A stretch of DNA of 64,000 bases from an uncultured Candidatus Micrarchaeota archaeon (GTDB taxonomy: Archaea; Micrarchaeota; Micrarchaeia; Burarchaeales; Fermentimicrarchaeaceae), in contig CAISET010000015.1 of NCBI GenBank assembly GCA_903884505.1, forward strand, positions 10,819 to 74,818, given 5' to 3'. Of the stretch, positions 2,823 to 46,931 are shown in pieces (position 1 is the stretch's first letter; each line of letters begins with the position of its first letter). Both the position numbers and the translations under genes were made by a program. Below the pieces are notes generated by a model. The model was not told where the DNA came from and did no database searches. It saw nothing but the letters and a program-made list of their open reading frames with translations.

Positions 2823-2879
2823 TGGCTAACCTCGGGTAATAAGACGACCTAAACCCTTACGAGGGGCGGCTATAAAAAG
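2823..2879. promoter_or_regulatory. Intergenic region with an AT-rich palindromic box (gctataaaaagc): likely pyrD promoter / thiE terminator region
   Basis: This is the only AT-rich stretch between the thiE stop and the pyrD start. The TATA-like tttttata on the minus strand lies ~25-40 bp upstream of the pyrD ATG. Confidence 0.3.
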
Positions 2880-3527
2880 CTACCGCGAGGCCTTCGCCTC
2901 AGCAATCCTTCTCTTAAACTCCGCAACCCTTCCCGCAATGTCCTCGTTCCCAACCACATCGGAAATTGCAGCAACTCCGTCAGCGCCCGCCATAATTGCC
3001 TCGGTGCAGTTCTCAAGCGTTATCCCACCGATTGCAACAACAGGAATCTCCGCATTCCTTTTCTTCACTTCCGAAATGGCATTGGCGCCAACCGCCCATC
3101 CCGCGTCCCTCTTCGTTTCCGTTGGAAATATGGGCCCCAGGCCGACATAATCCGCCCCTATCTTCGCAGCCCGCAATGCCTCTCCGGGGTTTCTCGCCGA
3201 AACTCCGACAATCTTCCCCTCGCCCATCGCATCGCGCGCAATCGGGTAGGGCGTGTCCCCCTGTCCGACATGCAACCCATCCGCATCTACGGAAACCGCC
3301 ACATCAACATGGTCGTTCACTATGAACAGCACCCCTTCCTTCCTGCAAAGCTCTGCGATGGAGTGCGCCTGCTGTATTATCTCAGGGAGAGGCAAATCCT
3401 TCTCCCGGTACTGCACAATCTTCGCCCCGCCCTTAATGGCATCGATGACCGTCTCAATGACGGGCTTTTTCGAGAGCCTTCTGTTGGTTATGAAATAGAA
3501 ATCAAGCGTCCCTTCCGGAATCTTCAT
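2880..3527 (-). CDS. thiE: Thiamine-phosphate synthase
   Basis: 215 aa, ...GADYVGLGPIFPTETK...AIGGI..., matching ThiE signature motifs. Confidence 0.85.
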   Translation of the reverse strand: MKIPEGTLDFYFITNRRLSKKPVIETVIDAIKGGAKIVQYREKDLPLPEIIQQAHSIAELCRKEGVLFIVNDHVDVAVSVDADGLHVGQGDTPYPIARDAMGEGKIVGVSARNPGEALRAAKIGADYVGLGPIFPTETKRDAGWAVGANAISEVKKRNAEIPVVAIGGITLENCTEAIMAGADGVAAISDVVGNEDIAGRVAEFKRRIAEAKASR

Positions 3528-10228: not shown

Positions 10229-12750
10229 CGCCCCGCAATCCGCATGAGCGACTCCTTGTGGTCCGGAGTCAACAGGAACTCCGGATCGTAGGCGCGCGCA
10301 TCCTCCAGAAGGTAACGCAATCTTCCGATTGGCCTCGTTTCCTTGAACTTTTCGTAGCCGCAGCCGCCGTATTTCGCCGTCCATTCCACCATCGCGTCCA
10401 TCTCCTGCCGGGTTGGTGCAGAGAGCTGCGAGCGTTCGTCTTTCAAATTTCCGGCCAAGGTATTGCGGAGGATTTCGGGCCTCAGGTCGTCATTGAAAAA
10501 TACGTGCGCAACTTCCAACGCGCTCCGCAACTGCGAGACGGGCCCCTCGTATCTGACCAATGCAAGAGCCTCCCTATTCCATCCCTTTGCCCTCGCTTTC
10601 TCCAGCACTTTCCAGCGCGCCCTGACTTCGGGAGGCGCGAACTCCGCCAGGTCCCGCTGCGTAGAGCAGCGGCTTATCCTCCAGATCCGCTCCCCCAGCT
10701 TGCCGGGCAGCTCTTCGCGCAGTTGTGCGCGCCCCATTTTCCAGTATTCGCGCACGGCATGCACTGCGATGTTTCCTGCATCCGCGAACTCGGTTATGGA
10801 TACCTGGGCATGCATCTTCCGGTGCCATGCGCCCTCCAGGCGCTCCTCGGCCACCCCGGCCGCCACCTTCAGCCGCTGGACAAGCGCCTCCTCGCGCGCA
10901 ACGCGCAGCCGTTCCACCCGCGCTTTCAGTTTCGCCGGAAGGACGTTCTCGCGCCGCAGCGCGCCGCTGGGCACGAATAGATACACAAGCCTCGGCTCGG
11001 AGATGTTTGCGGCCTTCGCGGCGCCGGATATTGGCATCAGGAGCGTAGCGGCCCTCCTCCCCGCGCGCATCTCTTCCACGTCTTCCTCGAGGAACTCGAC
11101 CGCTTTTTCGGCGCACTTGAGGTACGTTCTCCTCCATTCGGCGGGGAGCCGCTCGACGCGCATCCTCAGCCCGTCCGGGAGATTCTTGCGCCAAGCGCCG
11201 GCGCTCGGCTTGAAGAAATCGTCAAACTTCCGCGCCTTCAAGTTCCCCTCCTTCGCGGCCTTCGAGATTGGCATCGTGAACTTCGCGCGCTTCCTCCCGG
11301 CCTTAATTTCCCTCAGGTCATTCTCAAGCCATCCTACAAATTTCCCGAGGCATTCGTTGAAGTGCCTCTCATGCGCACCCATGAGGCTCTCGATGCGGTT
11401 TCTGAGGGCTTTCGGGAGGTTCTCGCGCCTCTTGGCATTGCTTGGCCTGAAATAATTTTCTAAGGTGCCCCATTCGATGTTGCCCGCTATGGCAGCATCC
11501 GAGACAGGCATAACGGAAACCGCCTTCCGCTTGCCCGCCTTCATCCCGGCAAGATAATCTTCGTAGAACTTGACCGATTTCTCAAGGCATTCATGGAAGT
11601 GCTTCTCATACGCACCCATGAGCTTCTCAATCCGTTTTCTGAGGCCGTCCGGAAGGTTCTTGCGCTGCTCGGCTTTGCTTGGGACGAAATAATCGGTTAA
11701 GGTGCCCGATTCGATGTTGCCTGCCTCGGCGGCTTCCGAAGTCGGCATACGGGGATTCGCCTTCCGCTTGCCCGCCTTCATTTCCCCAAGATACTCTTCA
11801 TAGAATTTGACTGACTTCCCGAGGCATTCATCGAAGTGCCCCTCATACGCACCCATAAGGTCCCCAATCCGTTTTCTGAGGCCGTCCGGAAGGTTCTTGC
11901 GCAACCCGGCATTGCTTGGAGCGAAATAATTCTGCAAGGTGCCCAACTCAATATTGCCTGCACTTGCGGCATCCGAGACAGGCATATAGGAACTCGCCTT
12001 CTGCTTGCCCGCCTTCATCCCGGCAAGATAATCCTCGTAGAACTTGACCGATTTCTCAAGGCATTCGTTGAAATGCTTCTCATATGTTCCCATAAGGCTT
12101 TCGATGCGGTTTTTGAGGCCTTCCGGAAGATTCTTGCGCAGATCAGCACGGTCTTGTGCGAAATAAGCATTTAAGGTGCCCAATTCAATATTGCCCGCCT
12201 TGGCGGCATCTGAGACGGGCATACGGGAAACCGCCTTCCGCTCGCCCGCCTTCATCCCGGCAAGATAATCCTCATAGTATCTGGCTGATTTCTCAAGGCA
12301 TTCAACGAAGTACTTCCCATATTCATTTCTGAGCGATTTGACGCGTTTTCCGAGGCTATCCGGCAAACTCCGATGCCGTTTCAAGTTCCAGGGGGTGAGG
12401 AAACGGGTCAGCGCAGTCGTCTTCATCTTCGCCTCACGTGCAGCATCGGCCATGGGCATTTTCCTGCTCACGGTTTTCTCTCCGGCTTTCATCTCCCCAA
12501 GGCGGTTCTCAAGGAATCCCAGCGCCTTTTCAATTTTGGCGACTGTTTTCCCGACTCCCGGGCGCAGTCCCTCGCCATCGCCGAGCGCAAGCTTTCCAAT
12601 CAGGGCCCCGGGTTCCGGCATCGCCTGCCCGTTGCTAACAGCAAGAGCCTCCCGTTGAGCGACTTCTTTCCCCGCATGCAGCATACGCAAAATTCCGCTC
12701 TTCAGGTATAAATTGATGGCGCCGGGCCTTGCGCAATTGTTGCAGCCCAT
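10225..12750 (-). CDS. Alpha-helical tandem-repeat protein of unknown function (~8 x 78-aa repeats). The probable true start is the internal MLHAGKEV at ~12684.
   Basis: Up to 841 aa. The repeat unit is LPDGLRKRIExLMGAYEKHFxECLEKSVKFYEDYLAGMKAGKRKAxxxMPVSDAAxAGNIELGTLxNYFxPSNAxxRKN. A TATA-like aatttata box lies inside the first 20 codons, ~25 bp upstream of the internal ATG. Confidence 0.6.
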   Translation of the reverse strand: MGCNNCARPGAINLYLKSGILRMLHAGKEVAQREALAVSNGQAMPEPGALIGKLALGDGEGLRPGVGKTVAKIEKALGFLENRLGEMKAGEKTVSRKMPMADAAREAKMKTTALTRFLTPWNLKRHRSLPDSLGKRVKSLRNEYGKYFVECLEKSARYYEDYLAGMKAGERKAVSRMPVSDAAKAGNIELGTLNAYFAQDRADLRKNLPEGLKNRIESLMGTYEKHFNECLEKSVKFYEDYLAGMKAGKQKASSYMPVSDAASAGNIELGTLQNYFAPSNAGLRKNLPDGLRKRIGDLMGAYEGHFDECLGKSVKFYEEYLGEMKAGKRKANPRMPTSEAAEAGNIESGTLTDYFVPSKAEQRKNLPDGLRKRIEKLMGAYEKHFHECLEKSVKFYEDYLAGMKAGKRKAVSVMPVSDAAIAGNIEWGTLENYFRPSNAKRRENLPKALRNRIESLMGAHERHFNECLGKFVGWLENDLREIKAGRKRAKFTMPISKAAKEGNLKARKFDDFFKPSAGAWRKNLPDGLRMRVERLPAEWRRTYLKCAEKAVEFLEEDVEEMRAGRRAATLLMPISGAAKAANISEPRLVYLFVPSGALRRENVLPAKLKARVERLRVAREEALVQRLKVAAGVAEERLEGAWHRKMHAQVSITEFADAGNIAVHAVREYWKMGRAQLREELPGKLGERIWRISRCSTQRDLAEFAPPEVRARWKVLEKARAKGWNREALALVRYEGPVSQLRSALEVAHVFFNDDLRPEILRNTLAGNLKDERSQLSAPTRQEMDAMVEWTAKYGGCGYEKFKETRPIGRLRYLLEDARAYDPEFLLTPDHKESLMRIAGR
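10650..12570. repeat. Intragenic ~234-bp tandem DNA repeats encoding the 78-aa protein repeats (most similar copies ~11400-12330)
   Basis: Near-identical nucleotide blocks, e.g. ggcattc(g/a)ttgaagtgc..tcatacgcacccatgag, repeated with a 234-bp period. Confidence 0.7.
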
Positions 12751-12835: not shown

Positions 12836-12861
12836 CCCTTTTAAAGGCTTCCGTTTAAAGG
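12836..12861 (+). promoter_or_regulatory. Two tandem TATA-like boxes (cccttttaaagg / ccgtttaaagg) upstream of the giant surface-protein gene
   Basis: Same ccttttaa-type consensus as the other promoters, in the divergent intergenic region between the repeat-protein gene (-) and the giant gene (+). Confidence 0.4.
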
Positions 12862-12961: not shown

Positions 12962-15900
12962 ATGAAAAATAAGAAAAACCGTGGAGGAGCAGGAGATACC
13001 GCCTCCCAAACTGCGGATTGCGTCTTTTCGTCTGCAGGGAAAGCCATGCTTCTTGTCCCGGTTTTGCTCATAATTTTCTCCCTTAGCGCAAGCGCTGCCG
13101 TTTCATTCAGAGGCGACTGGCCGAACGACGGCAACAGTTACCGCGTTGAGATATATGACCTAGGGCAGGCCAGCCCGTGCGACAATGAGTCGGACAATGG
13201 TACTCTGCTGGCTGGCTCAGGAAACATCCAGGGAAACGACCAATTTGATTCCAACGACGAGTATCTCCTTCCTCTATCCTTGACGTCAAGCGGCAACCTG
13301 TACATATATTTCTGCAACTCAGCAGACAACACGACCCTCGTTTCTTACGTGAGGAACACTACGGCTGGCTCCAATGTGGAGCTTGACTTTGGCAAAGTTG
13401 TGGGCACGGCTGCCACAAACAACGATTTGGGCAGCAAATACGTCCACGTATGCGACGCTTTGAACGGCGGCACCAACATAGCATCGAGCTCAGCACTCAC
13501 TGCTGCGGACGGCTCATATACGCAGTATTATTACCTTGACGAGCCTTCGGTTGCAACGGGAGGAACCAACATCCCTAACCTCTACATCTTCTTTGATAAT
13601 GACAACTCAAACAAATGCACCTTTGACGCGACGAAAATAGCGGGCCTTCACGTAATCCCAAGCACGCAACTGCCTTATAACTACGGCGTAAATATCAGCT
13701 ACTCTCCTGGCACGAAACTCAGCTCGAATGCGCACGCCGACATAATGGCGAGCGGCTACCTCAAGGTCCAGCGCGCTGCAGGGGACAATGAATTCGTCGG
13801 CATGACCGGCGAACTGACTGGCGGGGCAGGCGCATACAACCTCTACTACCAGAATCCGGCTACTGGCACGCTCACTGTTTACGTTTACACCGGCGCAGTC
13901 CCGGACACGACTCCCGAAGAGATTATTACGGGATTGGCGAATGGCGCAAGCGGCAATGCGCTTGACCTGTCGGTCAGGATAAGCGGCAGCGTCCCGAGCG
14001 ATGTCGCTACCGTCACAACGACCATCGGCGGACTGACATACAACGTGAGCACGATAGCAGGCACGCCAAAGACGTACAACCTTTACATACCTACGGGCCA
14101 GGCTCCGGCCATAGCGTTCAAGGACGCCGGCGGAGCCACGCTCTTCACCTATAACTACGGCGCTTCGGTTGGCAGCGACGACACGCTCAACGTCGGGAAG
14201 CTCTACGGAAATGTGCATGCGAACCTGGACGGCGCCGGGAACACTATACAGGTGTTTGAGGACAGTGCATGCACCGCGAACGGGAGCATCGAATCGCTTG
14301 CGGTAGTGCCACATACCGCAAACTCTCCGGACTACGTGGCGTATTTCGCTGACGGCAAGAACTCGACGGGCCCGGACTACTGGGTTGGGATAAATGACAG
14401 CGGCTACACCATTTGCGGCAACGGGTTCCAACTGTCAAGCGAAGAGAGGAACATGGACTTCACATCGCTTATAACCGGGACTGTCTCGGCAGGCATATAC
14501 ACTGCAGGTGCCATGGCACTGGACGCCGACGACGACGGCGTTTATTCCGCGGGAGACCCATTCACCACCCACTTCGACACGTCACACAATTACGAGCTTT
14601 ACGTCAACTCGAGCGGTTCGCACAATATACTGGCATTCTCCACGGTGGCAGGCGGCTACCCGGGCACGCTTGAGCTGAACATCTCAAAAACAATAGCGGT
14701 GGATACGACATTTAACGTCGGGCAGGTTGACTGGCAGGCCGCGAACGTCAGTGCGGACCTCACTGGCGCGAGCGCAGTGTGCGGCACAGGCGCGTGCTGG
14801 CTGAGCGTGTACAACGGCACATCGGATGTTTCGTCCAAAACAAAGACCTTCGCTGCCGATGGCAGCCAGTTCTACGCGGTCCCGGCAGGCACGGTCGACT
14901 TCCAGATATGGGGAGATGGTGGCCTCGTATCCTACGTTTCCGGCTACACTCCGGACGCGGATTACCGGGTCACATTCGAGCCAGGGTATAACGTAACGAT
15001 GACTGCGCCGGCGGGCATGATATGGGCCATAACGGGAGGCGGAACTTTCGCGAACTATTCTTCAAATGCAGCTGGAGAGCAGATATACGTGGACAAGTCC
15101 GAGGAGGAGCTTCCGACCACATACACCTACAGCGCGTATACCACTTCCCCGACCACGCTCAGGCTTAGCTGGGGCAGCAAGGACGCCAGTACCGACGCAA
15201 CGTGGGAGGTTGACAAGGTTTCCGGAGCCTCGCCTGCTATCCTAGACGTTTCAGGAAGCGACACGGGTGACATCCAGGTAGCCTCAAATCTTACGGCCTG
15301 CCGTGCAGGAACCTTCGTGAGCAGCGAATTAGTGCAGCCAGCCAGCGGCAACTATGCACAATATTATGAAGGCTCAGCAGCGACCTATTACGTCAGGGCC
15401 AGATATGCAAAAGCAGGCACGGGCAACTTTGATTCGTGCGTCAAATTCTCAGGTTCAGGTGGCGGTGCCTCGGATACGGCTGGTCTCGTCGAGGTGACGG
15501 GCACGGTCCCATCAACCAGCCTTGGAGTCAAGGACCTAACGGAAGTGGGTGCGGATAATGCCGAACTCAGCGGCTGGACTACTGCGAATGATAGCGGAGA
15601 TGATGCAACAACCCTAAGTTTCTACAGCAATGTCTACCACCTAGTCTCACTCAAAGATACTGCGGCAACCACCGCACACGTGAGGTTTTATATCTCCGGT
15701 CCAGGAGTTGCCTTGATAACACAAGAAGACTTGGCCCTTGCCGGAAGCTCAACAACCGTAAACGTTGATGACATAAGGGGCAATGTTCCGGCACTGCTTG
15801 ATACTGCCGTTTTAGAGGGCAGCACAGCGAGCGGTGAGATATGCGGCGGGACACCACCAATCCCCGGCAGCAAAGTTGCTGTTGCTACAGCAAGCGACCC

Positions 15901-18900
15901 GGGCTACAGGCTGTATGCCAAGGCGACTGGGGCATCCTTCTACGTGAACTTCTGTGATACGAATAATACAGAAGGCCTCGGAGCAAACACAAAGCTCCTT
16001 GAAGAGTCAGTCACAACGACCAGCAGCGGTGGGCACACTTTCTTGCTGAATGTTTCAAGGGTAGGTGGCGCGGCGCACGCCGACCTAACTGACGGCGACG
16101 ACCCATTCTCGGTCTATTCGGGCTCAGGCTGCACCACTCCGCTGAGCAGCGAAACCCTTTACGGCCTTAACCCCGGCACCTACGCAGGAAGCGAAAACTA
16201 CTCGCAATACTACCAAACTTCTGGCGCAGGAAACTATTACCTGGGTGTCGTGGAGGACGGAAACACTTCCTGCATGAGGTTCAGCGGAGGCGTAGCGGGC
16301 TCTAATGATGTAGTGGACATAACAACGAAACTGAGCGGCACCGTGCCAACAGCGATAACCAAGGTTGCAGCGGCGAACGCTAGCGGAGACGGCACAATAG
16401 ACGCATTCACAACGGACATAACGGCTGGCGCATACGCACTTTACATTCCATCAGGCTCAGCAACATCTAGCGCACTTGCGTACGAAGGCGCAACCCTCAG
16501 GCTGAACCGGACGAAGGACCTGAGCGTCAGCGACGCGAACTTCGACGTTAATGAGGTGCACGGTGACAAGTCCCTGCTCCACTCGGATATCAGGGGCGGC
16601 ACGTGGTACATCGAAGTCTGGAATACGGGTGGAGGCAAGGTTTCTTCCGAGACCGTGGACATGGGTGGAGGCTCCGGAACATACAAACAGTTCTACGAGG
16701 ACCACCTAGGCTACGATATCCGGATTTACAATGCGTCGCACGAGCTCGCATACTATGTATACGGTTATAACCCGGGAGTCAGTGGCGGAGACGACCTCAC
16801 TTTTGAGCCGGATACCAAACTCACAACGACCGCGCCTACCGGAATCGCGGCGGTGGAGGCTATAGACAAGACTCGCGATGACTTCACATACCGCGACAAC
16901 ACATCGGCACCCTCAAACCCATACTTCACGATGTACGTTGCGAACAGCACCAGCTATGATTTGAACGCCTACACCGACTCTTTCACCACGCTCGGGCTTG
17001 CGAGAACTGTCGCACTGGGAACGGACAAGGACCTTTCCGGCGGCGACTACGAGTGGATTATCGGCGAGATAACCGGCAACTGCGCGAACATCAATTCAGC
17101 CCTGAAACCTGCCGGAGGCCCTGGAGCGATGCACGTTAAAGTTGTCGACGATTACACCAACATCGGCGGCTGGGCAGAATACTCCTCCCAGACCGTTGAC
17201 CTTGTCACAACCTGTGGGACAAGCCCAAGCTATATGCAGTATTACGATGAGTCCGATGTCAAAAACGCGACAAATGCAGACATCGTTTTCACCATATCGG
17301 GCAGTGACTACTTTGTTATCAAAGATTACGCACCCGCGACCAACCCGGACGTCATGACCCTGGAGCCGCAGTATGAGCTTACAATCGTTGATCCTGGCCC
17401 AAGCGACATACAAAGTGCCAAGTTCAACCTTACGGCAGGCGCGCTTGGAACCGGAACTGCGGCCGTCGAGATTGTTGCGGACGGCTCGGCCAACCTAGTA
17501 CAGCTTTCCAGCATTTACCTGCCAGCCAAGAGCGGATATACCTTCCATGCATACACCGCAACTGACCTAAGCGGCGAAGTCCTGGAGAGGAACAGCAAGG
17601 CTATGGCCGCGGATGACGATTGGAATATCGCGGATGTCACTGGCGCGAATGCAAGCATACACGCAGACCTGGCGGATGGAACGCACAGGATATTTGTCTA
17701 CGCAAACGACGACTCCACAATCGTTTCCGGGATACAAAGCGGAACGCAGTACGCGACCGTAGGGGACTACACACTTTACTACGACGTGGATGATGCGGGC
17801 GCTTCAGCCTACATCCAAGTCACAACCAACACCTCAGCCCTCCTGACCAGGTACAAATACGCGCTCCCAGGTCTGGTCGGCGGCGACTCGCTCACATTCG
17901 AGCCGGACACGCTGCTGAACGTGACCTACCCCGCAAGCCTGAACGCGGGCAGCTTCAGCTACAATGACGGCACGTACAACTATTACATAACGGCAGGAGA
18001 GAATGGCGGGGACACCTACGTCCAGAGCGGCTCGGGCTACAACTTCAGCGCCTACACCGGCGCTGCATGGACGACCGAAGTCCTGCGCAGGGCAGGCAAG
18101 GCCGTCGCCCCGGCTACAACCAGCTGGGACATTGCCGAGGTCACGGGCAACAGCACTTACCTGCACCCATACCTCATAGGGCACCAGGTGAAGATATATA
18201 ACAATACGGATACGGGCATGGTTTCCGGGATAGAGGGCGGACAGCAATACGTTACAATCCCCGCGGCTGGCAACAACTACACGATTTACTACGACGTTGG
18301 CGACGCGGACGGTTCAATGTACATACACATAAACAGCCCTGCGCTGCTGTTAACCCGGTATCACTACAACGGCCCCCAGTTTGCAGGCGCAGGTTCGCTC
18401 ACCTTCCAGCCGGACACGCTGATAAACGTGACTTACCCCGCAAGCATGAACAACGGCAGCTTCAAGTACACCGATTCGGGCGGCTTCGATTATCTCATCA
18501 AAGCAACGGAGAACGGCACCTACGTCGAGGCCGATAAGAGCTTGTACAACTTCAGCGCGTACAGCGATGCCGCATGGTCGGCACTCGAGCTCAACCGGAC
18601 AGGCAAGACGGTCACCGCGCCGACGACCCCGTGGAACATCGCAGACGTTTACTGGAACACTACATACGTGAACGGCGATCTTAGCGGAGCCGCAGCGCAG
18701 CTCGAAGTTTATACGACTGCGGGCAGCCTGGTATCATCCGAAACAAGGACCTTCGACGCAGACGACTACCAGTATTACGAAGTGCCCGATTCCGGGAACG
18801 TGGACTTCAGGGTGTACGACAACCCGGGCGCAGCAGTGCTGTTCTACGCCTACAACTTCACGCCGAGCGCGGCCGGAAACACCATGTTCGAGCCATACTC

Positions 18901-21900
18901 CCCGGTAGTCGCCCATGCCCCGGGCACAATACACAGCTGGGCGATACGTGGCCACAATTTCACGTACCGCGACAACACGACTAGCTTGATAATCTACGTA
19001 GATTATCTCGAAGAGTACTATAACACAGACTACATATACAAGGCTTACACCGGCGACTTTGCTGGAGACGTGCTGTCAATGGGGCCCAAGGACGCGAGCC
19101 TGAATCCCCACTGGTATGTGAACACGGTTACGAACCCATACATACACAACGACCTGGTAGGCTCGGCAAACCTGACTGTCGTTTACCTCAATGCAGGCAC
19201 AGATACCGACTGCGATACCGCAACCGCGCTTTCCTCCCCAACGGACCAGATATGGGCAAACGGAATCAAGAAGTATTATGAGGGAGAAGGAGCGGGAGCC
19301 AAGTACGTCGAGATAAAGGTCACCAATGGTTCGTATGTAACGTGCATCAACACGCTCGGCCTGGAACCTGTAGGCGGAGACCAGAACACGGATTATGACC
19401 TTGACGTGAAGACGAACGGCACTGTGAACAGCGGAATCGTGACCGTCTACATAGACTCGAATCCGACTTCAAATGACGACATCTCGCAGGCAACAGTGGC
19501 GAGCGGTTCGGTGAAGCTCTACAATATCTACTGGGCTGGCGCCAGCCCTGCGGACATAAGCTACAACGATTCAACCACTAAGCAACTGGACCTCACAGGC
19601 AGGAATCTCACCACAAACCCAACAACGATAAACGTCGGTAAGGTTTCAGGACTTTCGCATCCGGACATGACCACCGCGCAGGTCTACTTCGATAGTGCAT
19701 GCAACACAACACAACTGAGCACGGAAACCACGGGCGAGCCGTTTAATGCCAGCGGAACACCCCCATATGCGTACCAGCGGTACTTCGAGGACAACGGGAC
19801 ACAGTACCTCGCCGTGAGCGACGGCGTCCACACAACCTGCGGAACCGGCGGCTTCACCCTTTCAAATGAGGACGCAACAATAAACATGGGGAGGATGGTA
19901 AGCGGGTCGACGCCATCATCAACCTATGATGTGGTTACATGGGGAGGACTCCCTGCCGATGCTGACATTGTTTCTATAGCGGCAAATATGAGCGGAGGCG
20001 CAACTAATGACTTCACAACTTCGCCAGTCTCCACAGGGCCAGCGGCTCCAGACGATTACGTGCTGTTCGTTGACTCGGATGCGCTGGGGCTCTCAACAAC
20101 AATGCTGGACTTCTATGCCAACATTACCCCAACTGGCTTGGTGTTTGACAAGGCAGTAGACCTCTCTGCTTTAGACAACGTGACGAACGTCGCAAAGGTG
20201 GCAGGGCTTGCCGATGCGGGGCTCTGGGGAGGACAGTTCAGAGTGTGCGATGCGATACCTTCCCTTGCAGATTGGGGGGGCTGCACGACATATCTTGATA
20301 GCGTGCCCGTTATGCCGGCGAATGGCAGTCTGGCTACGCTCGACTACGACCTGTTCTTTGAGCAGCCAGCGGTAACAGACTATTACGTCGAGCTCCACAG
20401 TACGGGAGCTTACGGGGGAGCGCCATCATACACATACCACTTAGTTTCCACAACCCAATCCGGAGACTACATATACCAGGACTTTGACGGCGTTGTGTTT
20501 GGAACTGTAAACGAGACCTACAATGCAACAGTGCCGATACCAAACGTTGAGGTGAACGTGTACACTGGCATCACAGATCTCGTAAAGGCTTACACCGATG
20601 CCGCCGGTTACTACGAGCTATACTCCGGGAGCTCCAGTGGCCCGATGTTCATTGGCGAGCCTGCCATGCCTTACGGAGTAGCCTACAACATGAGTTTCCA
20701 GAAGGCAGGTTACGTGACGAGGGACTGGAATACAGATCCTAATGACACAACCGATTATTCGACTCCGTTCGTGGACAGCTCAAGCCCATTGGGCGACTTT
20801 GGAATAAACGGCGCTGCCTATCCCCTCGCTGGTGCCATAGGCCCTGACCGATTATACCTCCAGCTTCTCAGCGGGATAATCGTCAATGTTACGGACCTTG
20901 GAGGAAACCCGATAAACGACGCGACCGTCAGCATATATGACTGCAGCTTCAGCAGCAATCCGGCCGACTGCACTACAATCGGAACGTGCACGAATCCGCC
21001 CGGAGGAGTATTGACTGGCAACTGCACATTGGCAGCAGCAAACAACCCAGATGCATATCCGGGGCAGTACTTCTTCGCCGGGACAACAACACCGGGCGAC
21101 TACGTCCAGATACGGGTTGCGAAGGCGCCATTTGACACGCAGTTTGACCCAGACCCAAATGCAAGCGTCAACAATAATATAGGAGGAGGAGGCGCACTCC
21201 AAGCGCTCGTAAAGACAATACGCATGATAAATCCGGCGCCCAAATGCAGCTTGGAAGTCACGGCACCGGGCGGCATGTCCTACCAAGACAGGCAGTATCT
21301 TGTGGTAGCGAACGACTCCGCAGTCAAATTCGTCGTGCAGTGCGGTGAAGCAGGCCTCGACGTCACCGGAGACATGTCTCCGCTTGGTGGAGACCCGCTC
21401 GTCAGCTTCTACCCCGACTACGCGCTCGGAACCGTTTACAACCACTGGCAAGGCATCAACGCGTCGGACGACACCTACAGGCTACCCATCAACGCCTCCG
21501 ACGGAGTCAACACCTGGCAGGGCCTGGGCTACGTTGAAGTTGACGGCACGCCCCCAGGCATCTACGACTACTATCCCCACGGAGGCACGTTCAACACTAA
21601 GAGCGTGACTTTCGGTGTCTGGACCGATGAGATTGCAGTCTGCCACTACGACACTAACCCCAACGACATCTTCTGGAACATGTCCTACACGATGGCAGGC
21701 GACGGATCGCAGCACACCGGAATGGTCTATGCCGACAATGGCGCAAACACGGTTTACGTAAGATGCGCAGACCGCTTAGGCAATGCAATGAACACAAGCC
21801 AGGAAATAAGCTTCAACGTCGACGCAGTGGCGCCAAGCGTAACCAACGTAAGCCCGGCATACCTCATCAAGCCGTACAATGCAACCAACCGGGGCAACGT

Positions 21901-23287
21901 CTCCATAATGACGGACATGGACGCGGATTGCAGGTGGGACGCGGCCGAGATGAACTATACCAACATGCCCCTTAACCACAGCTTCAACACTACGGGTGGC
22001 CACTGGGCCAACCTTGCGAACGCAACTCCGGGCCAGGGCCTCAACATGTTCTTCATCCGCTGCAGGAGCAAGGGAGGAAGCGCAATCGAGATGAGCTCGT
22101 CAGCGCTGTTGGCCTTCAACTATGACACGATTCAGCCCACGATATACGGGCTGGGCTGGTATCTGGACGATGGGGCGCAAAAAATGTACCTGGACTTTGC
22201 GTCCGATGAGCCGCTCGACCTGAGCTCGCTCGCCCTGACATTCAACAACACCCCGATGACCCATGACGGCGGCAACGGCATGAACTTCGTATACAGCTTC
22301 AACTACTCTGCACTCCCCGATGGGACCTACGAAGTCAACATGACGTCATGCAAGGACCTTGCGGGCAACATATGCGTGCAGAGCGGCGTGCTACTCGGCG
22401 AGTTCCCATTCGATGTGACAATCGACAGGGCGGCGCCCGCTATATCCGGTGTCGGCTACAACGCGAGCACGTGGAACCTTACTGCCACGACCAATGAGAG
22501 CGCGACCTGCAAGTGGTCATGGGCGAATGAGGACTACTGGGACATGCCGAATGCAATGACCGGGTCGGGCACGGGCCACTTCGCATTGGTGCCACTGCCT
22601 GAAGGGTCATACAACATCTACATCAAATGCGCGGACGGGTCATACAACGTCGGCAACTATACCTACAGCGTGAGCGTGGATACGATGCCGCCGGTGATAA
22701 CCGCCTCGAGCCCGACCGGCGTAATCGCAACGAGCTCGCCAACGCTCAACGTGACGACGAATGAGGCGTCAATCTGCAGGTATGCAACCAGCGCGTTCAA
22801 CTATGACGCGGGCGGCATTCTGATGGACAACACAACGAGCGGGCTTGTGCACACGAAGCCGCTGAGTGGGCTGAATGACAGCACCTATCTCTACTATGTG
22901 CTCTGCCGCGACGCTGCAGGGAACACGATGGCTTCGCCGCTGCCCATAACCTTTGTCATAGACACCCGCGGCAACTTCAACTACACCTATGACCTGAGCG
23001 TGGGCTGGAACAACTTCTTCCTGCCGAGGATAGTCCTCCAGAACTTCACCTCGCTTGGAGGAAACTACACGGTCAAGAACGTGCTCGAGACAAAGGGCGG
23101 ACTGACAAACACGAGCTACAACATGCTGTATTACAGGAACGCCACTTCGTGCCCGGCGCAGAACGGAAGCTGCTGGAGGTCGTATGTGCCCGGAGACACG
23201 GCGAACGACCTGACGGAGTTCAACGACTGGGACAACCTGCCTTACTGGATACACATGCTGCTGGCAGACAGGCTGGAGATACCGTAA
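12962..23287 (+). CDS. Giant secreted cell-surface protein (~3440 aa; adhesin/S-layer-associated type, heavily N-glycosylation-sequon rich). Alternative starts are GTG 12917 and ATG 13046.
   Basis: Single 10.3-kb ORF. The N-terminal signal peptide is MLLVPVLLIIFSLSASA. Composition is biased to N/T/S/G/Y/D with very frequent N-x-S/T sequons. There are at least 6 internal ~170-300-aa repeats (e.g. GGDSLTFEPDTLLNVTYPASLNAGSF / GAGSLTFQPDTLINVTYPASMNNGSF) and C-terminal ~95-aa Cys-bracketed domains (C(R/K)(W/Y)...Y(Y/L)YV(L/K)CxDxxGN). Confidence 0.8.
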   Translation: MKNKKNRGGAGDTASQTADCVFSSAGKAMLLVPVLLIIFSLSASAAVSFRGDWPNDGNSYRVEIYDLGQASPCDNESDNGTLLAGSGNIQGNDQFDSNDEYLLPLSLTSSGNLYIYFCNSADNTTLVSYVRNTTAGSNVELDFGKVVGTAATNNDLGSKYVHVCDALNGGTNIASSSALTAADGSYTQYYYLDEPSVATGGTNIPNLYIFFDNDNSNKCTFDATKIAGLHVIPSTQLPYNYGVNISYSPGTKLSSNAHADIMASGYLKVQRAAGDNEFVGMTGELTGGAGAYNLYYQNPATGTLTVYVYTGAVPDTTPEEIITGLANGASGNALDLSVRISGSVPSDVATVTTTIGGLTYNVSTIAGTPKTYNLYIPTGQAPAIAFKDAGGATLFTYNYGASVGSDDTLNVGKLYGNVHANLDGAGNTIQVFEDSACTANGSIESLAVVPHTANSPDYVAYFADGKNSTGPDYWVGINDSGYTICGNGFQLSSEERNMDFTSLITGTVSAGIYTAGAMALDADDDGVYSAGDPFTTHFDTSHNYELYVNSSGSHNILAFSTVAGGYPGTLELNISKTIAVDTTFNVGQVDWQAANVSADLTGASAVCGTGACWLSVYNGTSDVSSKTKTFAADGSQFYAVPAGTVDFQIWGDGGLVSYVSGYTPDADYRVTFEPGYNVTMTAPAGMIWAITGGGTFANYSSNAAGEQIYVDKSEEELPTTYTYSAYTTSPTTLRLSWGSKDASTDATWEVDKVSGASPAILDVSGSDTGDIQVASNLTACRAGTFVSSELVQPASGNYAQYYEGSAATYYVRARYAKAGTGNFDSCVKFSGSGGGASDTAGLVEVTGTVPSTSLGVKDLTEVGADNAELSGWTTANDSGDDATTLSFYSNVYHLVSLKDTAATTAHVRFYISGPGVALITQEDLALAGSSTTVNVDDIRGNVPALLDTAVLEGSTASGEICGGTPPIPGSKVAVATASDPGYRLYAKATGASFYVNFCDTNNTEGLGANTKLLEESVTTTSSGGHTFLLNVSRVGGAAHADLTDGDDPFSVYSGSGCTTPLSSETLYGLNPGTYAGSENYSQYYQTSGAGNYYLGVVEDGNTSCMRFSGGVAGSNDVVDITTKLSGTVPTAITKVAAANASGDGTIDAFTTDITAGAYALYIPSGSATSSALAYEGATLRLNRTKDLSVSDANFDVNEVHGDKSLLHSDIRGGTWYIEVWNTGGGKVSSETVDMGGGSGTYKQFYEDHLGYDIRIYNASHELAYYVYGYNPGVSGGDDLTFEPDTKLTTTAPTGIAAVEAIDKTRDDFTYRDNTSAPSNPYFTMYVANSTSYDLNAYTDSFTTLGLARTVALGTDKDLSGGDYEWIIGEITGNCANINSALKPAGGPGAMHVKVVDDYTNIGGWAEYSSQTVDLVTTCGTSPSYMQYYDESDVKNATNADIVFTISGSDYFVIKDYAPATNPDVMTLEPQYELTIVDPGPSDIQSAKFNLTAGALGTGTAAVEIVADGSANLVQLSSIYLPAKSGYTFHAYTATDLSGEVLERNSKAMAADDDWNIADVTGANASIHADLADGTHRIFVYANDDSTIVSGIQSGTQYATVGDYTLYYDVDDAGASAYIQVTTNTSALLTRYKYALPGLVGGDSLTFEPDTLLNVTYPASLNAGSFSYNDGTYNYYITAGENGGDTYVQSGSGYNFSAYTGAAWTTEVLRRAGKAVAPATTSWDIAEVTGNSTYLHPYLIGHQVKIYNNTDTGMVSGIEGGQQYVTIPAAGNNYTIYYDVGDADGSMYIHINSPALLLTRYHYNGPQFAGAGSLTFQPDTLINVTYPASMNNGSFKYTDSGGFDYLIKATENGTYVEADKSLYNFSAYSDAAWSALELNRTGKTVTAPTTPWNIADVYWNTTYVNGDLSGAAAQLEVYTTAGSLVSSETRTFDADDYQYYEVPDSGNVDFRVYDNPGAAVLFYAYNFTPSAAGNTMFEPYSPVVAHAPGTIHSWAIRGHNFTYRDNTTSLIIYVDYLEEYYNTDYIYKAYTGDFAGDVLSMGPKDASLNPHWYVNTVTNPYIHNDLVGSANLTVVYLNAGTDTDCDTATALSSPTDQIWANGIKKYYEGEGAGAKYVEIKVTNGSYVTCINTLGLEPVGGDQNTDYDLDVKTNGTVNSGIVTVYIDSNPTSNDDISQATVASGSVKLYNIYWAGASPADISYNDSTTKQLDLTGRNLTTNPTTINVGKVSGLSHPDMTTAQVYFDSACNTTQLSTETTGEPFNASGTPPYAYQRYFEDNGTQYLAVSDGVHTTCGTGGFTLSNEDATINMGRMVSGSTPSSTYDVVTWGGLPADADIVSIAANMSGGATNDFTTSPVSTGPAAPDDYVLFVDSDALGLSTTMLDFYANITPTGLVFDKAVDLSALDNVTNVAKVAGLADAGLWGGQFRVCDAIPSLADWGGCTTYLDSVPVMPANGSLATLDYDLFFEQPAVTDYYVELHSTGAYGGAPSYTYHLVSTTQSGDYIYQDFDGVVFGTVNETYNATVPIPNVEVNVYTGITDLVKAYTDAAGYYELYSGSSSGPMFIGEPAMPYGVAYNMSFQKAGYVTRDWNTDPNDTTDYSTPFVDSSSPLGDFGINGAAYPLAGAIGPDRLYLQLLSGIIVNVTDLGGNPINDATVSIYDCSFSSNPADCTTIGTCTNPPGGVLTGNCTLAAANNPDAYPGQYFFAGTTTPGDYVQIRVAKAPFDTQFDPDPNASVNNNIGGGGALQALVKTIRMINPAPKCSLEVTAPGGMSYQDRQYLVVANDSAVKFVVQCGEAGLDVTGDMSPLGGDPLVSFYPDYALGTVYNHWQGINASDDTYRLPINASDGVNTWQGLGYVEVDGTPPGIYDYYPHGGTFNTKSVTFGVWTDEIAVCHYDTNPNDIFWNMSYTMAGDGSQHTGMVYADNGANTVYVRCADRLGNAMNTSQEISFNVDAVAPSVTNVSPAYLIKPYNATNRGNVSIMTDMDADCRWDAAEMNYTNMPLNHSFNTTGGHWANLANATPGQGLNMFFIRCRSKGGSAIEMSSSALLAFNYDTIQPTIYGLGWYLDDGAQKMYLDFASDEPLDLSSLALTFNNTPMTHDGGNGMNFVYSFNYSALPDGTYEVNMTSCKDLAGNICVQSGVLLGEFPFDVTIDRAAPAISGVGYNASTWNLTATTNESATCKWSWANEDYWDMPNAMTGSGTGHFALVPLPEGSYNIYIKCADGSYNVGNYTYSVSVDTMPPVITASSPTGVIATSSPTLNVTTNEASICRYATSAFNYDAGGILMDNTTSGLVHTKPLSGLNDSTYLYYVLCRDAAGNTMASPLPITFVIDTRGNFNYTYDLSVGWNNFFLPRIVLQNFTSLGGNYTVKNVLETKGGLTNTSYNMLYYRNATSCPAQNGSCWRSYVPGDTANDLTEFNDWDNLPYWIHMLLADRLEIP

Positions 23288-23338
23288 GGTTCTCCTTCCC
23301 TTTCATTTTTATCATTCATTCTGGATTGGGGTGAGTAA

Positions 23339-24661
23339 ATGGTCAGAAACGGGATGTTGGTATTCGCCTTCCTGCTAGCAAGCGCGCTTCTTGTCTCTGC
23401 GGACGTCGGGGTGGGTGACTGGACGGGCAATCTGTTCATCAACGGAAACATTGCCCCTTCAAATGCCGACGGCATTCCGATATGCGCCTACGTTGGCAGC
23501 AGCTCCACGCCCAATGACGACACCACGGTGGGCGCCGAAGCGAGCGGCTATTACCTGCTGCATGTTTTTGCTTCTGCCGGCGAAAATGTCAATTTCAGGG
23601 TGTTCTGCGAATATCCCGTGAATGAGAACCCCCAGGCTTGGAGTGCAAGCCCGCCAAGGCATTACCTCAACCTCACAATAACCCACACGACTCCCCCAGT
23701 CATAACCGTGATAGCGCCCATCGGCAGCAGCGTGCCATCCGGCAGTGTTGCGATGATTGTTGCCACTGACGAGCATGCGACATGCAGGTATTCGACCACG
23801 CCGGGAGTGGCATACGGGAGCATGGCTTCGGCAACCACCTCAACGCTTGGTACCACGCATACATGGGCCATCTCCGCGCCTGCAGACGGCACGGTTTACA
23901 CCTACTATGTTAAGTGCAGGGACCAATTCGGCTTCATCAGCAGCGATGCAACGGTAAGCTTCACCACGGCGGGAGGCGGAGGAGGCGGCGGAGGCGGTGG
24001 CGGCGGAGGAGGCGGTGGAGGCGGCGGAGGCGAAGCCGGACCCACGCCAACGCCACGGCCAGGTGCGTCCCCGGGAGCAAGCCCTCTGCCTCCGGGATGC
24101 TCCCTACTCGGGGGCCAGTGTGCCGATGCAACCGACTGCTGTGATGCCGGCGCGACATGCGCGAACTACGTCTGCACCCAGCCGCAGATAACTCCCACGC
24201 CCAGCGGCAGGTTCGTGAACCTCACAGTCCCTGGAACAGTCACCGTAAATTCGACCGTGCGCCTGCACGTGACAGACGCGGTGACCGGGGCATCGATCGC
24301 GAACGCGACCGTGACAGTGACGACGCCGAGCGGTGAGCTGATAACCCTAGTCACGGATTCATACGGGGCTGCCAGCTTCTTTGCAGCCGAAATCGGCCTT
24401 TACAACTACGGCATCATCGGCTTCAGGTTCTCCATGCCCAAATCAACAAATTCGCTGGCGCCGTCCGGGCCTGGCGCAACGCCTACGGCCGTCCCGAGCA
24501 TCACCCCAAGCCCAAGCCCGACGCCTGGCGGAGGCGGATTGCCGCCCTGGGCAGGGCTGGCTGCGCTCGTTGTGGTAGTCTTAATGGTCGCAGTTGCGGC
24601 TGCGGGCGCGTTCATCCTCGCCCACAGGCACCACGGGCGCAAGCAGAAAAAGAAGAAGTAA
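23339..24661 (+). CDS. Membrane-anchored surface protein. Signal peptide, then the same Cys-bracketed domain as the giant protein, then Gly22 tract, P/T linker, Cys-rich knot, and a C-terminal TM helix with a basic tail.
   Basis: 440 aa: MLVFAFLLASALLVSA signal; TCRYSTTPGVAYGSM...YTYYVKCRDQFGF domain; GGGGGGGGGGGGGGGGGGGGGG; ...TPSPSPTPGGGGLPPWAGLAALVVVVLMVAVAAAGAFILAHRHHGRKQKKKK (PGF-CTERM-like sorting-signal architecture). An RBS-like ggggtgag lies before the ATG, suggesting an operon with the giant gene. Confidence 0.7.
   Translation: MVRNGMLVFAFLLASALLVSADVGVGDWTGNLFINGNIAPSNADGIPICAYVGSSSTPNDDTTVGAEASGYYLLHVFASAGENVNFRVFCEYPVNENPQAWSASPPRHYLNLTITHTTPPVITVIAPIGSSVPSGSVAMIVATDEHATCRYSTTPGVAYGSMASATTSTLGTTHTWAISAPADGTVYTYYVKCRDQFGFISSDATVSFTTAGGGGGGGGGGGGGGGGGGGGEAGPTPTPRPGASPGASPLPPGCSLLGGQCADATDCCDAGATCANYVCTQPQITPTPSGRFVNLTVPGTVTVNSTVRLHVTDAVTGASIANATVTVTTPSGELITLVTDSYGAASFFAAEIGLYNYGIIGFRFSMPKSTNSLAPSGPGATPTAVPSITPSPSPTPGGGGLPPWAGLAALVVVVLMVAVAAAGAFILAHRHHGRKQKKKK
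23972..24037 (+). repeat. (GGN)22 simple-sequence tract encoding a poly-Gly22 linker
   Basis: ggaggcggaggaggcggcggaggcggtggcggcggaggaggcggtggaggcggcggaggc, in frame within the 23339 gene. Confidence 0.8.
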
Positions 24662-24676
24662 GCAGAGGGGTTACAC

Positions 24677-26110
24677 ATGAGCAGGCTCATCCCTTTCCTC
24701 CTTATTTTCCTTGTCTGCAGCATAGCTCTCGCGGATAGCGCGGCGGATGTAAACCAGGCAGCGACTCCTTTTCTGCTGCAGGGTGAAACCTTCACAAAGG
24801 CGCTCCACGTGATAGGGGGGCGCGACTACTACTTCGTGTCCATCAACGGCACGGAATCCATCGTGTTTGCGACTTATGGGGGCGTGCGCCCGGTATCGAA
24901 TGAAAGCGAGCTGAGGGACCTTCTCGCGCAGGAGCTCTCCGAAACGAACGTTTCCGTGGAGGCGTTCCTCCCCAACAGCACCGAGAAGGACAGGATATGG
25001 GGGTATGTGCTCGCTTTCAACGAGAGCAGGAAGAGGGAGCGCGACTGCGCGGCTCTAATAGGCATGGACAGGTTCCCCTGCTATGATTTGGAAACGTGCT
25101 GGCGCGCCTGCTACACCCCCGCATGCCAGACCATGAAGCTGGGCTCCGGCGCCTTTTTCCTCACCCTCGAGCAGAAGATGTACCTCAACATAACGTTCAT
25201 AGGCGGCAACATGTCGGAATTCGGGGAAACGCTCTACGCGCTCTCGCCAAACAGCACCACCACACGGACCGAATTGGAAAGCCTCTTGGGCAACATCCGG
25301 GGCATACGGGAGGCCTGCGGGAATGTCGAGTCAAATTCCATCCAGCAGCGCAGCGGGGTAGGCTTCTGCTACGCGGTGGTATACGAATATGGGGGGCTGA
25401 TAAATGCGTCCGCGGATATAACGCGCAGGAGGGATGCGCTGATGCCCCTCTTCACAGCGGATGAGACCGCTTCGCTGCTCCACAACCGCACGCTCGAGCG
25501 GCTCGGGGTGAAGGAGGCCAACCTTGCCCGCCCGCTATGCCTCCAGGTGAAGGGCGATGCCGAGGTGGAGCTCGGGCGGGCCAAGGCGAGCGCAAACCGG
25601 GCCCTCTCGCTGGTCTCATCCGCGGAAATCTCTTCGGATAAGCAGGAGCTGGATGCGTCATATGCTGGCCTGGACTGCGCGAACTCGTCAAACCAGGGGA
25701 TACGGGCATTCAACTCATCATTCTACCGCATCTCCGCGGGCCTGAACGCTGCCGCGTCCAGTGCCATACGCGCGTATGAAAGCACCTCGCAGAAGCTGAA
25801 TGGCTCGAAATCCCAGCTTTCCGCGCTTCAGGCGCAGGCCCCGAACGATGAGGAGGTGCAGGCGGTTGCGGCAAGCATCGCGGCCCTGGACTCGCGGCTC
25901 AGGGCGATGCCCAATCCGGAAGAGCTGCCGCAAATCAGCGCGGAGATAGGCGGCAACACCTCGAGGATGGCGGAGCTGAAAGCGCAGTTTGAGCAGCGGC
26001 AAACCTTCAACTACTACGCGTTAGGCGCGGGCGCAGTTCTCATCGCCATGGCGATTTTTGTCGCCGCAAGGGCCATGAACTCCACCCCAAAGAAGAAGAG
26101 CAGGGGCTGA
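24677..26110 (+). CDS. Secreted, C-terminally membrane-anchored protein with a coiled-coil region (unknown function; third gene of the surface-protein operon)
   Basis: 477 aa: N-terminal signal MSRLIPFLLIFLVCSIALA, many N-x-S/T sequons, an Ala/Gln/Ser-rich helical segment, and a C-terminal TM helix plus KKKSRG tail. An RBS-like gaggggt lies 8 bp upstream. Confidence 0.6.
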   Translation: MSRLIPFLLIFLVCSIALADSAADVNQAATPFLLQGETFTKALHVIGGRDYYFVSINGTESIVFATYGGVRPVSNESELRDLLAQELSETNVSVEAFLPNSTEKDRIWGYVLAFNESRKRERDCAALIGMDRFPCYDLETCWRACYTPACQTMKLGSGAFFLTLEQKMYLNITFIGGNMSEFGETLYALSPNSTTTRTELESLLGNIRGIREACGNVESNSIQQRSGVGFCYAVVYEYGGLINASADITRRRDALMPLFTADETASLLHNRTLERLGVKEANLARPLCLQVKGDAEVELGRAKASANRALSLVSSAEISSDKQELDASYAGLDCANSSNQGIRAFNSSFYRISAGLNAAASSAIRAYESTSQKLNGSKSQLSALQAQAPNDEEVQAVAASIAALDSRLRAMPNPEELPQISAEIGGNTSRMAELKAQFEQRQTFNYYALGAGAVLIAMAIFVAARAMNSTPKKKSRG

Positions 26111-26150: not shown

Positions 26151-26165
26151 CAATTTATATAATCC
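26151..26165 (+). promoter_or_regulatory. TATA box caatttatataatcc, 25 bp upstream of the ATG at 26186
   Basis: AT-rich box with the conserved leaderless spacing. Confidence 0.4.
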
Positions 26166-46111: not shown

Positions 46112-46115
46112 CCAC

Positions 46116-46922: not shown

Positions 46923-46931
46923 TGCACCACG

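Follow-up and report, generated by a model that had tools for sequence, protein, structure and literature searches.

The stretch of DNA examined here is a 64-kb segment (64,000 nucleotides) of contig CAISET010000015.1, referred to as the window. It carries three open reading frames (ORFs) in series on the forward strand, confirmed by ORF listing and translation. They are called g1, g2 and g3 and code for a giant secreted protein and two membrane proteins (Table 1). An earlier reading of the sequence, the original prediction, had proposed an operon encoding a tripartite S-layer or adhesin complex with an anchor architecture of the archaeosortase type, PGF-CTERM-like but with LPPWAGL in place of PGF. 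With a probability of about 0.55, the cluster is interpreted here as coding for a cell-surface fibre made of three subunits, in what is probably a DPANN archaeon. The tripartite surface complex is plausible in that form, as a fibre, and the S-layer and PGF-type parts of the proposal are unproven.

The three genes are closely spaced. The spacers, measured at 51 nt between g1 and g2 and 15 nt between g2 and g3, bear out the announced gaps of 10-50 bp, and the ribosome-binding sites claimed with them are found as a Shine-Dalgarno-like sequence of the GGGGTG(A) or GAGGGG type ahead of each start codon. All promoter and terminator assignments in the cluster are putative readings of the sequence. 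Two TTTAAA boxes lie 103-122 nt 5' of the g1 ATG. The gene downstream of g3, which is uridine-kinase-like, has its own TATA box, and since this TTTATATAA box precedes it the sequence suggests that the transcription unit finishes at g3. The T5 tract in the g1-g2 spacer could act as a partial terminator and attenuate transcription between the two genes. A scan for bacterial sigma-70 promoters and intrinsic terminators, which is not applicable to an archaeon, gave counts equal to shuffle expectation. The window, which comes from metagenome assemblies, is taken to be archaeal because an Nre gene adjoins the cluster. g1 and g2 lie in one reading frame with two in-frame stops between them (23285-23341). 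Read-through joining both proteins was rejected: in the related locus L007 the pair is in different frames and each protein has a private terminal domain, so the common frame is regarded as a coincidence.

Table 1. Features of the g1-g2-g3 cluster. Coordinates are those of the window; aa, amino acid residues; a slash marks a predicted cleavage site; handles beginning with L or P designate related loci and proteins.
Feature	Coordinates	Strand	Details
Two TTTAAA boxes, candidate archaeal TATA/promoter region of the cluster	12840-12845 and 12854-12859	+	Read off the sequence; putative
g1, giant secreted glycoprotein without membrane anchor	12962-23287	+	3441 aa, 365 kDa, isoelectric point 4.2
g1 extended signal peptide, aa 1-47	12962-13102	+	Long n-region with C-x-F-S-S-x-x-K, h-region, SLSASA/AVS
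g1 N-terminal region, aa 48-384	13103-14113	+	Kept in the L007 giant, phmmer 6e-91
g1 repeat array, aa 385-2490	14114-20431	+	About 12-14 units of ~165 aa; fragment BLAST, iterated profile, alignment
g1 weakly CarboxypepD_reg-like/Ig-like beta-sandwich region, aa 2490-2859	20429-21538	+	Pfam CarboxypepD_reg E 0.0096, below gathering score
g1 Ig-like array, aa 2860-3335	21539-22966	+	Four canonical Cys-bracketed copies and one without first Cys
g1 C-terminal domain, aa 3336-3441, plus stop; candidate docking domain	22967-23287	+	L007 giant, 1.7e-19
g1-g2 spacer	23288-23338	+	T5 tract 23306-23310; Shine-Dalgarno GGGGTGA 23328-23334
g2, type-I membrane protein, putative detached anchor module of the giant	23339-24661	+	440 aa
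g2 N-terminal domain, aa 22-115; may pair with the C-terminal domain of g1	23402-23683	+	Split-type operons only
g2 Cys-bracketed Ig-like domain, aa 116-209	23684-23965	+	In-house profile, 2.7e-32
g2 Gly20 linker, aa 212-231	23972-24031	+	Mixed GGN codons
g2 knottin-like 6-Cys motif, aa 254-279	24098-24175	+	C-x6-C-x6-CC-x6-C-x4-C; kept in P0001, the L007 homologue and the L009 giant
g2 CarboxypepD_reg-like beta-sandwich, aa 306-355	24254-24403	+	Pfam PF13620, sub-threshold
g2 C-terminal transmembrane helix and basic tail	24527-24661	+	LPPWAGLAAL...HRHHGRKQKKKK; preceded by a P/T linker ending GGGG
g3, type-I membrane glycoprotein of an uncurated family	24677-26110	+	477 aa
g3 conserved head, aa 21-290	24737-25546	+	Small beta domain and Cys-rich core; invariant alignment columns
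g3 long-helix stalk, aa 239-443	25391-26005	+	AlphaFold2 pLDDT 85-96 over residues 260-440
g3 transmembrane helix and KKKSRG tail	26006-26110	+	Homologue tails without common motif
TTTATATAA box	26154-26162	+	Putative; 24-32 nt 5' of the next gene at 26186

The giant ORF had been announced with 3456 residues. The ORF is real and its length depends on the start codon: the ATG at 12962 gives the length adopted in Table 1, 3456 residues would need a GTG at 12917, and an alternative gene call begins at Met29 and gives 3413 residues. As predicted, g1 bears a Sec signal, which is its sole hydrophobic segment, and the giant thus has no anchor of its own. The signal ends with a cleavage site of the A-x-A type (SASA/A). 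N-x-S/T sequons number 91 against 44 expected. The g1 counterpart in another sample is identical except for the choice of start codon.

The internal repeats of g1 are real as well, with fragment-against-fragment BLAST E-values down to 1.6e-59, and they are far more numerous than the at least six copies first reported. Between residues 117 and 2484, an iterated hidden Markov model (HMM) recognized a module of ~110 aa that recurs every ~165 aa, in up to 16 copies. The model was iterated on one protein and its weakest copies are tentative; its matches extend into the N-terminal region (residues 117-194 and 254-310). A single repeat unit modelled with AlphaFold2 (AF2), for which the other units served as the alignment, is all-beta, with a predicted local distance difference test score (pLDDT) of 70 and a predicted template modelling score of 0.69. 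This model has no significant neighbour in the PDB, none being found at E < 0.07. The region 48-384 had no match in a Pfam scan at E <= 10, the first 2800 residues are unrecognised by Pfam, and residues 48-2860 are mostly without a family match.

The giant had also been credited with at least six copies of a ~95-aa Cys-bracketed domain, which is immunoglobulin-like (Ig-like). Only four copies contain both conserved Cys (2860-2955, 2953-3056, 3155-3241 and 3239-3335), and a fifth, at 3057-3154, lacks the first one. The last copy passes the Pfam family Big_13 (PF19077; residues 3254-3335, 35.7 bits for a cut-off of 27) and the other copies are tied to it through an in-house HMM (E 1e-26 to 1e-34). 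The conserved Cys pair is a trait of this subgroup. A profile of the copies gave weak matches in the PDB to the fibronectin type III domain 1K85 and to SiiE (2YN3). The ~105-aa C-terminal domain that follows has no Pfam match and is absent both from the rest of the window and from the fused giants described below.

The second protein, g2, is organized as a succession of signal peptide, N-terminal domain, Ig-like domain, Gly20 linker, proline/threonine-rich (P/T) stretch, knot, CarboxypepD_reg-like domain, P/T linker, transmembrane (TM) helix and tail. The poly-Gly, P/T linker, Cys knot, TM helix and basic tail announced for this protein are therefore all present. It does contain one copy of the Cys-bracketed domain of the giant, which was thought to open the gene and actually comes second, after a ~95-aa N-terminal domain without Pfam match and with weak similarity to the Ig profile. 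The closest g1 relative of the g2 Ig-like domain is the last Ig-like domain of the giant (g2 117-198 against g1 3241-3320, 42% identity, BLAST E 9e-9). The match of g2 to PF13620 reaches 23.3-25.5 bits for a gathering score of 32.3 and covers half of the model; the homologues P0001 and that of L022 give the same weak-to-clear match. Identity of g2 amounts to 60% with the L007 homologue and 50% with P0001. A homologue search with full-length g2 was swamped by the poly-Gly and gave one match, and the C-terminal module used alone gave none.

The predicted anatomy of g3, namely signal, coiled coil, C-terminal TM helix and KKKSRG tail, is recovered with long helices spanning residues 239-468 and a TM helix at 444-462. 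The Cys-bracketed Ig-like domain that both anchored proteins were supposed to share is missing from g3. Sequons number 15 for 4 expected. The Cys-rich core comprises C124, C135, C141, C145, C150, C231 and C288, among which C135, C141, C145 and C231 are invariant in the family together with G129, and C124 and C150 nearly so. The sequon excess and the invariant cysteines point to an extracellular location. Confidence of the AF2 model is high in the beta domain and in the helices and low in the Cys-rich core, where the pLDDT is 32-55. Foldseek searches with this model gave no PDB match at E < 0.38 and nothing better than E 0.05 over the PDB and BFVD. A viral class-I fusion-like or fusexin-like nature was considered and rejected, the Foldseek matches in both databases being only coiled-coil and tape-measure noise.

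The close homologues of g3 are six in number (41-52% identity). An exhaustive profile search extended the family, counted as clusters at 50% identity, to ~237 cluster representatives at E <= 1e-3, among them 102 at E <= 1e-10. The head is the only part kept out to Micrarchaeota, and the stalk varies. None of the 52 members scanned (0/52) has a Pfam family for the shared region, NCBIfam offers none either, and g3 profiles retrieved only coiled-coil matches and no true relative from the PDB. A Roadblock/LC7 domain was observed in 3/52 scanned members. Much longer proteins, of 813-1720 aa, contain the Cys-rich core as well (P0023, P0070, P0095 and others), and several family members of ~600 aa end with a weak Big_1/Invasin_D3 domain. 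The g3 variant of the other sample, P0002, differs at two neighbouring sites only (T346N and F350Y), and little population variation was seen in g1 and g3 among the available data.

Conservation of the cluster and the anchor module in relatives

The relatives retrieved by genome and metagenome scans belong to metagenome-assembled genomes (MAGs) that bear the labels Micrarchaeota or 'Candidatus (I)ainarchaeum'. Both are DPANN lineages, and the organism carrying the cluster is therefore probably a DPANN archaeon. The cluster is kept in ~6 related lineages at 40-60% identity. The succession of giant, g2 and g3 is found in L007, L004, L022, L024 and L025, and the proposed operon or functional unit stands on this ground. 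In L007, a giant that is 34-45% identical to g1 over nearly its full length, C-terminal domain included, is followed by a g2 homologue (60%) and a g3 homologue (40%). The g2-g3 order recurs in L003-L006, L022, L024 and L025, and fragments of a giant lie upstream wherever enough sequence is available. These loci, in which the anchor module is a gene of its own, are referred to as split-type. Since their g3 proteins are only 35-56% identical among themselves, several lineages have been sampled.

The order is reversed in the Micrarchaeota-type loci (L009-L012, L014, L015, L017-L019), where the g3 homologue stands ahead of the giant. A giant of 2500-3100+ aa follows the g3 homologue, directly or past one or two small genes, in 9/9 of these loci with downstream sequence. 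In L011 (11384-13029) and L017 (11455-13088), two small genes of 296-297 aa and of 175 or 247 aa separate the g3 homologue from the giant. Other arrangements were found in L020, where the Cys-rich core of g3 belongs to a 553-aa protein overlapping the stop of a surface protein of 822+ aa, and in L021, where it is fused within a surface protein of 1815 aa.

The C-terminus is available for two Micrarchaeota giants, those of L009 (2851 aa) and L014 (2927 aa). Both end in a region homologous to g2 211-419 (phmmer 8.7e-25, 1e-23 and 2e-19) that consists of poly-G/S, 6-Cys motif, CarboxypepD_reg-like domain, linker, TM helix and KKKK tail. Because the anchor module is fused to the C-termini of giants in Micrarchaeota, g2 is regarded as the detached anchor of g1. 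Only split-type clusters contain the C-terminal domain of g1 and the N-terminal domain of g2. The simplest reading of these sequences is that the giant's own anchor module was turned into a separate gene and that the private terminal domains of g1 and g2 now join the two polypeptides. The idea that the downstream proteins tether the giant is hence supported by fusion/fission as far as g2 is concerned; for g3 the argument is its conserved adjacency to giants.

Outside the signal peptide and the g2-like module, g1 could not be aligned with the Micrarchaeota giants, and an overall homology was rejected. The extended signal peptide is common to all giants (L009-L012, L014, L017-L019), in which it reads MKTK[TS]CSxENxxCxFSSK, h-region, LSVSA; its g1 counterpart is ADCVFSSAGK...SLSASA. 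It may constitute a specialised export or recognition signal.

Membrane anchors and archaeosortase-family neighbours

Archaeosortases have been placed in a subset of Euryarchaeota and divided into the subfamilies ArtA-E; in the ArtA/PGF-CTERM system the TM helix of the substrate is removed and a lipid is attached (2018 review, PMC6098224). The C-terminus of g2 is reminiscent of the S-layer glycoprotein from Haloferax volcanii and of further ArtA substrates through its Thr/Pro linker, TM helix and C-terminal basic cluster, and to this extent the predicted PGF-CTERM-like architecture is present. The signal itself is not: the g2 and g3 tails showed no PGF, PEF, VPXXXP or other archaeosortase/exosortase signal when compared with NCBIfam at E <= 10. 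The sequence at the start of the TM helix is LPPWAGL in g2 and NYYALGAG in g3. The former is not kept, the six orthologue tails reading LPPWAGL, GPNYLGG, GGWMQPL, GGDVFLV, GGFNWLA and GGISGIL. What all six g2 tails have is a P/T linker with G-G at its end, a helix of ~25 aa that closes with A-[YF]-L-x-Y, and an R/K tail. g3 has a TM helix and a basic tail and no S/T/P linker.

The original prediction had called for an archaeosortase gene to be looked for in the genome. No homologue was found in the 64-kb window by tblastn (E < 1) and phmmer with the L007 enzyme or by Pfam scans of ~35 ORFs, and a family member does adjoin the cluster in L007, L023 and L004. In L007, an exosortase/archaeosortase-family gene (10491-11522) lies 33 nt past the g3 homologue on the same strand. 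Its product matches Pfam PF09721 and scores 38.6 bits with TIGR04178 (cut-off 23), and it stays below the NCBIfam cut-off of every named subfamily (17.7 against 100 for ArtC, the best of ArtA-E, and 31.8 against 208 for XrtA). In L023, an ORF 4 nt past the g3 homologue (1518-2513, +) is clearly orthologous to the L007 enzyme (phmmer 3.9e-95); it has 332 aa, runs off the contig end and is uncalled in the source record. In L004, the N-terminus of an archaeosortase-family protein is found ~0.8 kb downstream of g3 (1.3e-8). Such a gene is therefore adjoining in 3/6 split-type lineages with downstream sequence, and the gene past g3 is unrelated in the window, L024 and L025. The L007 and L023 enzymes have conserved Cys (PQC/LQC) and Arg (NFAR/NLGR) motifs, which we take to hold the catalytic residues from what is known of ArtA.

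A candidate three-subunit surface fibre

In the proposed mechanism, g1 would be exported by Sec, cleaved at SASA/A and heavily N-glycosylated, and would form an extended acidic fibre of more than 20 beta-sandwich modules without anchor. It would be held on the cell by g2, the C-terminal domain of g1 docking non-covalently on the N-terminal (and Ig-like) domains of g2, which the Gly20, knot, beta-sandwich and P/T segments would space from the membrane. The third and obligatory partner would be g3, whose disulfide-rich head is carried by a helical stalk followed by a C-terminal TM helix; it could serve as a co-anchor or second attachment point, as a stalk of SlaB-like design or as an assembly factor. 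The fibre likely serves to attach the archaeon to a host cell or to some surface, by analogy, because of its multi-Ig architecture, the extreme divergence of the giants and the precedent of giant DPANN proteins (PMC6642349). The complex is supported by the adjacency of g3 and giants, which persists although the Micrarchaeota giants are unalignable with g1. The context is rich in surface functions, with type IV pilus genes, a Laminin_G_3 protein and beta-helix giants elsewhere in the window.

Several points weigh against this interpretation. The adhesive or host-contact role is an analogy with multi-Ig adhesins and DPANN giants, and the contacts between g1, g2 and g3 are putative. Conserved adjacency to giants is what designates g3 as a putative partner; g3 also accompanies giants with their own TM anchor, where it is needless as an anchor and may act otherwise. 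The nine Micrarchaeota-type loci share purF/purD-like neighbours, which makes them related genomes and few independent observations. The assignment to DPANN, probable as it is, goes back to the MAG labels of relatives. Finally, the T5 tract between g1 and g2 could uncouple their expression.

This tract, the putative status of the g1-g2-g3 contacts and the abundance of surface proteins in DPANN-type genomes, visible elsewhere in the window, would all suit three independent surface proteins that are mere neighbours, g1 being released or held by an uncleaved signal peptide. Such independence is very unlikely considering that the order is kept at 40-60% identity in several lineages, that g2 is a fusion/fission relative of giant C-termini, that the g1 C-terminal and g2 N-terminal domains co-occur and that g3 stands beside giants in two different gene orders; retention by the signal is further opposed by the A-x-A type cleavage site of g1. 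Less easily dismissed, though still doubtful, is the proposal that only g2 anchors g1 and that g3 is a receptor-like partner or a factor for the maturation or assembly of giants (folding, disulfide or glycan handling, export). It would explain the g3 homologues beside the self-anchored giants of L009 and L014, and is consistent with the conservation of the Cys-rich head alone across lineages, with the Roadblock/LC7 domain of some family members and with the extended signal peptide common to giants with unrelated mature parts, which could be a recognition element. However, neither a catalytic motif nor similarity to a known chaperone, oxidoreductase or secretion component is seen in g3, the AF2 confidence of its Cys-rich core is low, and a structural ectodomain would account for the length of its helical stalk and its heavy glycosylation. 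It is rather unlikely that g2, and possibly g3, is the substrate of a dedicated, unclassified archaeosortase that would remove TM helix and tail and attach a lipid, the giant then hanging from a lipid-anchored subunit. The family gene adjoining the cluster in three relatives, which from its conserved Cys and Arg likely codes for an active enzyme, and the generic tripartite tail of the six g2 orthologues argue for it. Yet curated sorting-signal models miss both tails, no PGF/PEP-like triplet is invariant among the orthologues, the window has no homologue, the gene after g3 is unrelated in three loci, the L007 enzyme falls outside all ArtA-E models, and an ordinary type-I anchor also consists of a TM helix and a basic tail.

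An S-layer with two or three components after the model of SlaA/SlaB, with g1 as the outer lattice and g3 (and g2) as membrane-bound stalks, is highly improbable. SlaB of Sulfolobales is a 475-aa protein with beta-sandwich domains, a helix of 132 aa that assembles into a trimeric coiled coil, and a TM helix (PMC10903991). g3, with its 477 aa, has the same order of elements (N-terminal beta domain, long helices, TM helix), a broad g3 profile matches the SlaB chain 8QOX_B (E 1.6e-6), and g1 is like SlaA a large glycosylated outer protein without anchor, acidic and rich in sequons, combined with a partner of ~475 aa (PMC10903991). However, the SlaB match is limited to the coiled coil, stands among other coiled-coil proteins and is lost with a tighter profile. 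Homology of g3 with SlaB was rejected on these coiled-coil-level matches and on the Foldseek result given above, and no credible sequence or fold homology connects the two systems. g1 is 2.4 times the size of SlaA and its 365 kDa are a linear string of ~20-25 small beta-sandwich modules in tandem, typical of fibrillar adhesins and not of lattices, two anchored partners are present, one of them, g2, being a part split off from the giant itself, and nothing points to a lattice. The single S-layer protein so far characterised in Micrarchaeota, identified experimentally in a cultivated micrarchaeon, has ~101 kDa (10.1101/2021.04.28.441871), and a divergence of the giants beyond recognition between lineages would be unusual for a structural wall protein. 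The S-layer complex of the original prediction thus gives way to the architecture of a fibrillar multi-Ig adhesin.

As a fibre, g1 can be compared with Salmonella SiiE and the bacterial fibrillar adhesins with BIg/Big_13 domains, which are likewise very long, acidic, secreted and made of tens of beta-sandwich repeats; the Big_13 match and the weak profile match to 2YN3 point in the same direction. In contrast with these adhesins, g1 is archaeal, Sec-exported and predicted to be N-glycosylated, and would be held by separate type-I subunits rather than by a type I secretion system retention module or a sortase. Most of it (aa 48-2860) also lacks a family and its repeat-unit model a PDB neighbour. 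SPEARE and other DPANN giants, described in Nanohaloarchaeota, are mostly extracellular proteins of several thousand residues from symbionts with small genomes, thought to function in host contact and usually held by a TM helix close to their C-terminal end (PMC6642349). The fused Micrarchaeota giants resemble them by their C-terminal TM anchor. Unlike SPEARE, g1 contains no serine-protease, laminin-G, toxin or restriction-endonuclease domain in a Pfam scan and no cytoplasmic part, its anchor is encoded by a separate gene and it is accompanied by the conserved partner g3.

Surface giants with Ig repeats, and membrane stalks encoded by genes of their own, are already known kinds. The new elements are the split or fused anchor module, the uncurated g3 family that tracks giants across two DPANN groups, the extended signal peptide common to the giants and a recurrent unclassified archaeosortase-family neighbour. 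They could be united in an undescribed, DPANN-specific surface machine in which a fast-diverging giant adhesin is combined with a fused or split g2 anchor, with g3 as an obligatory stalk or receptor and, in some lineages, with a cluster-dedicated archaeosortase outside ArtA-E that reads a non-PGF signal of g2. This combination is quite unlikely. If true, lipid anchoring of the archaeosortase type would no longer be confined to Euryarchaeota and would be linked with attachment to hosts. The resemblance to the archaeosortase A system is that an enzyme-family gene adjoins the orthologous cluster in three relatives; the differences are a g2 tail with neither PGF nor curated signal and no invariant triplet, a neighbouring enzyme foreign to ArtA-E, the lack of an enzyme gene in the window and the distribution of known enzymes in Euryarchaeota, not DPANN. 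An archaeosortase-family neighbour outside the named subfamilies and outside Euryarchaeota makes DPANN archaeosortase-type anchoring directly testable. More generally, host recognition and attachment by DPANN are largely unknown and the largest DPANN surface proteins are mostly unannotated. The cluster offers a concrete conserved candidate, made of a giant fibre and two membrane subunits, in which a natural fusion/fission experiment indicates the subunit that anchors the fibre, and the g3 family could be a genomic marker of such fibres.

Other genes of the window

Divergent from g1, an apparently cytoplasmic protein of 841 aa is encoded at 10225-12750 (-). It is built of ~8 tandem repeats of ~85 aa (MKAGKxKAxSxMPVSDAAxAGNIExGTLxxYFxPSxAxLRKNLPDGLRKRIExLMGAYEKHFxECLEKSVKFYEDYL), each with a helix-turn-helix-like stretch, and has no credible Pfam or NCBIfam family. 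An ORF of 817 aa at 31175-33628 (-), called with 651-655 aa in other assemblies, has no Pfam or NCBIfam match.

An archaeal type IV pilus or archaellum-like set is located at 44136-48443 (-), with two T2SSF-family membrane proteins and a T2SSE ATPase surrounded by unannotated ORFs. A second surface-protein cluster at 50805-62142 (+) codes for four consecutive proteins of 1569, 547, 1115 and 543 aa. The 547-aa protein has no Pfam match; NosD/right-handed beta-helix repeats occur in 3/4 of the proteins and Big_1/Invasin_D3 domains in two of those. Upstream of this second cluster, at 41680-43752, lies the gene of a 690-aa Laminin_G_3 protein.

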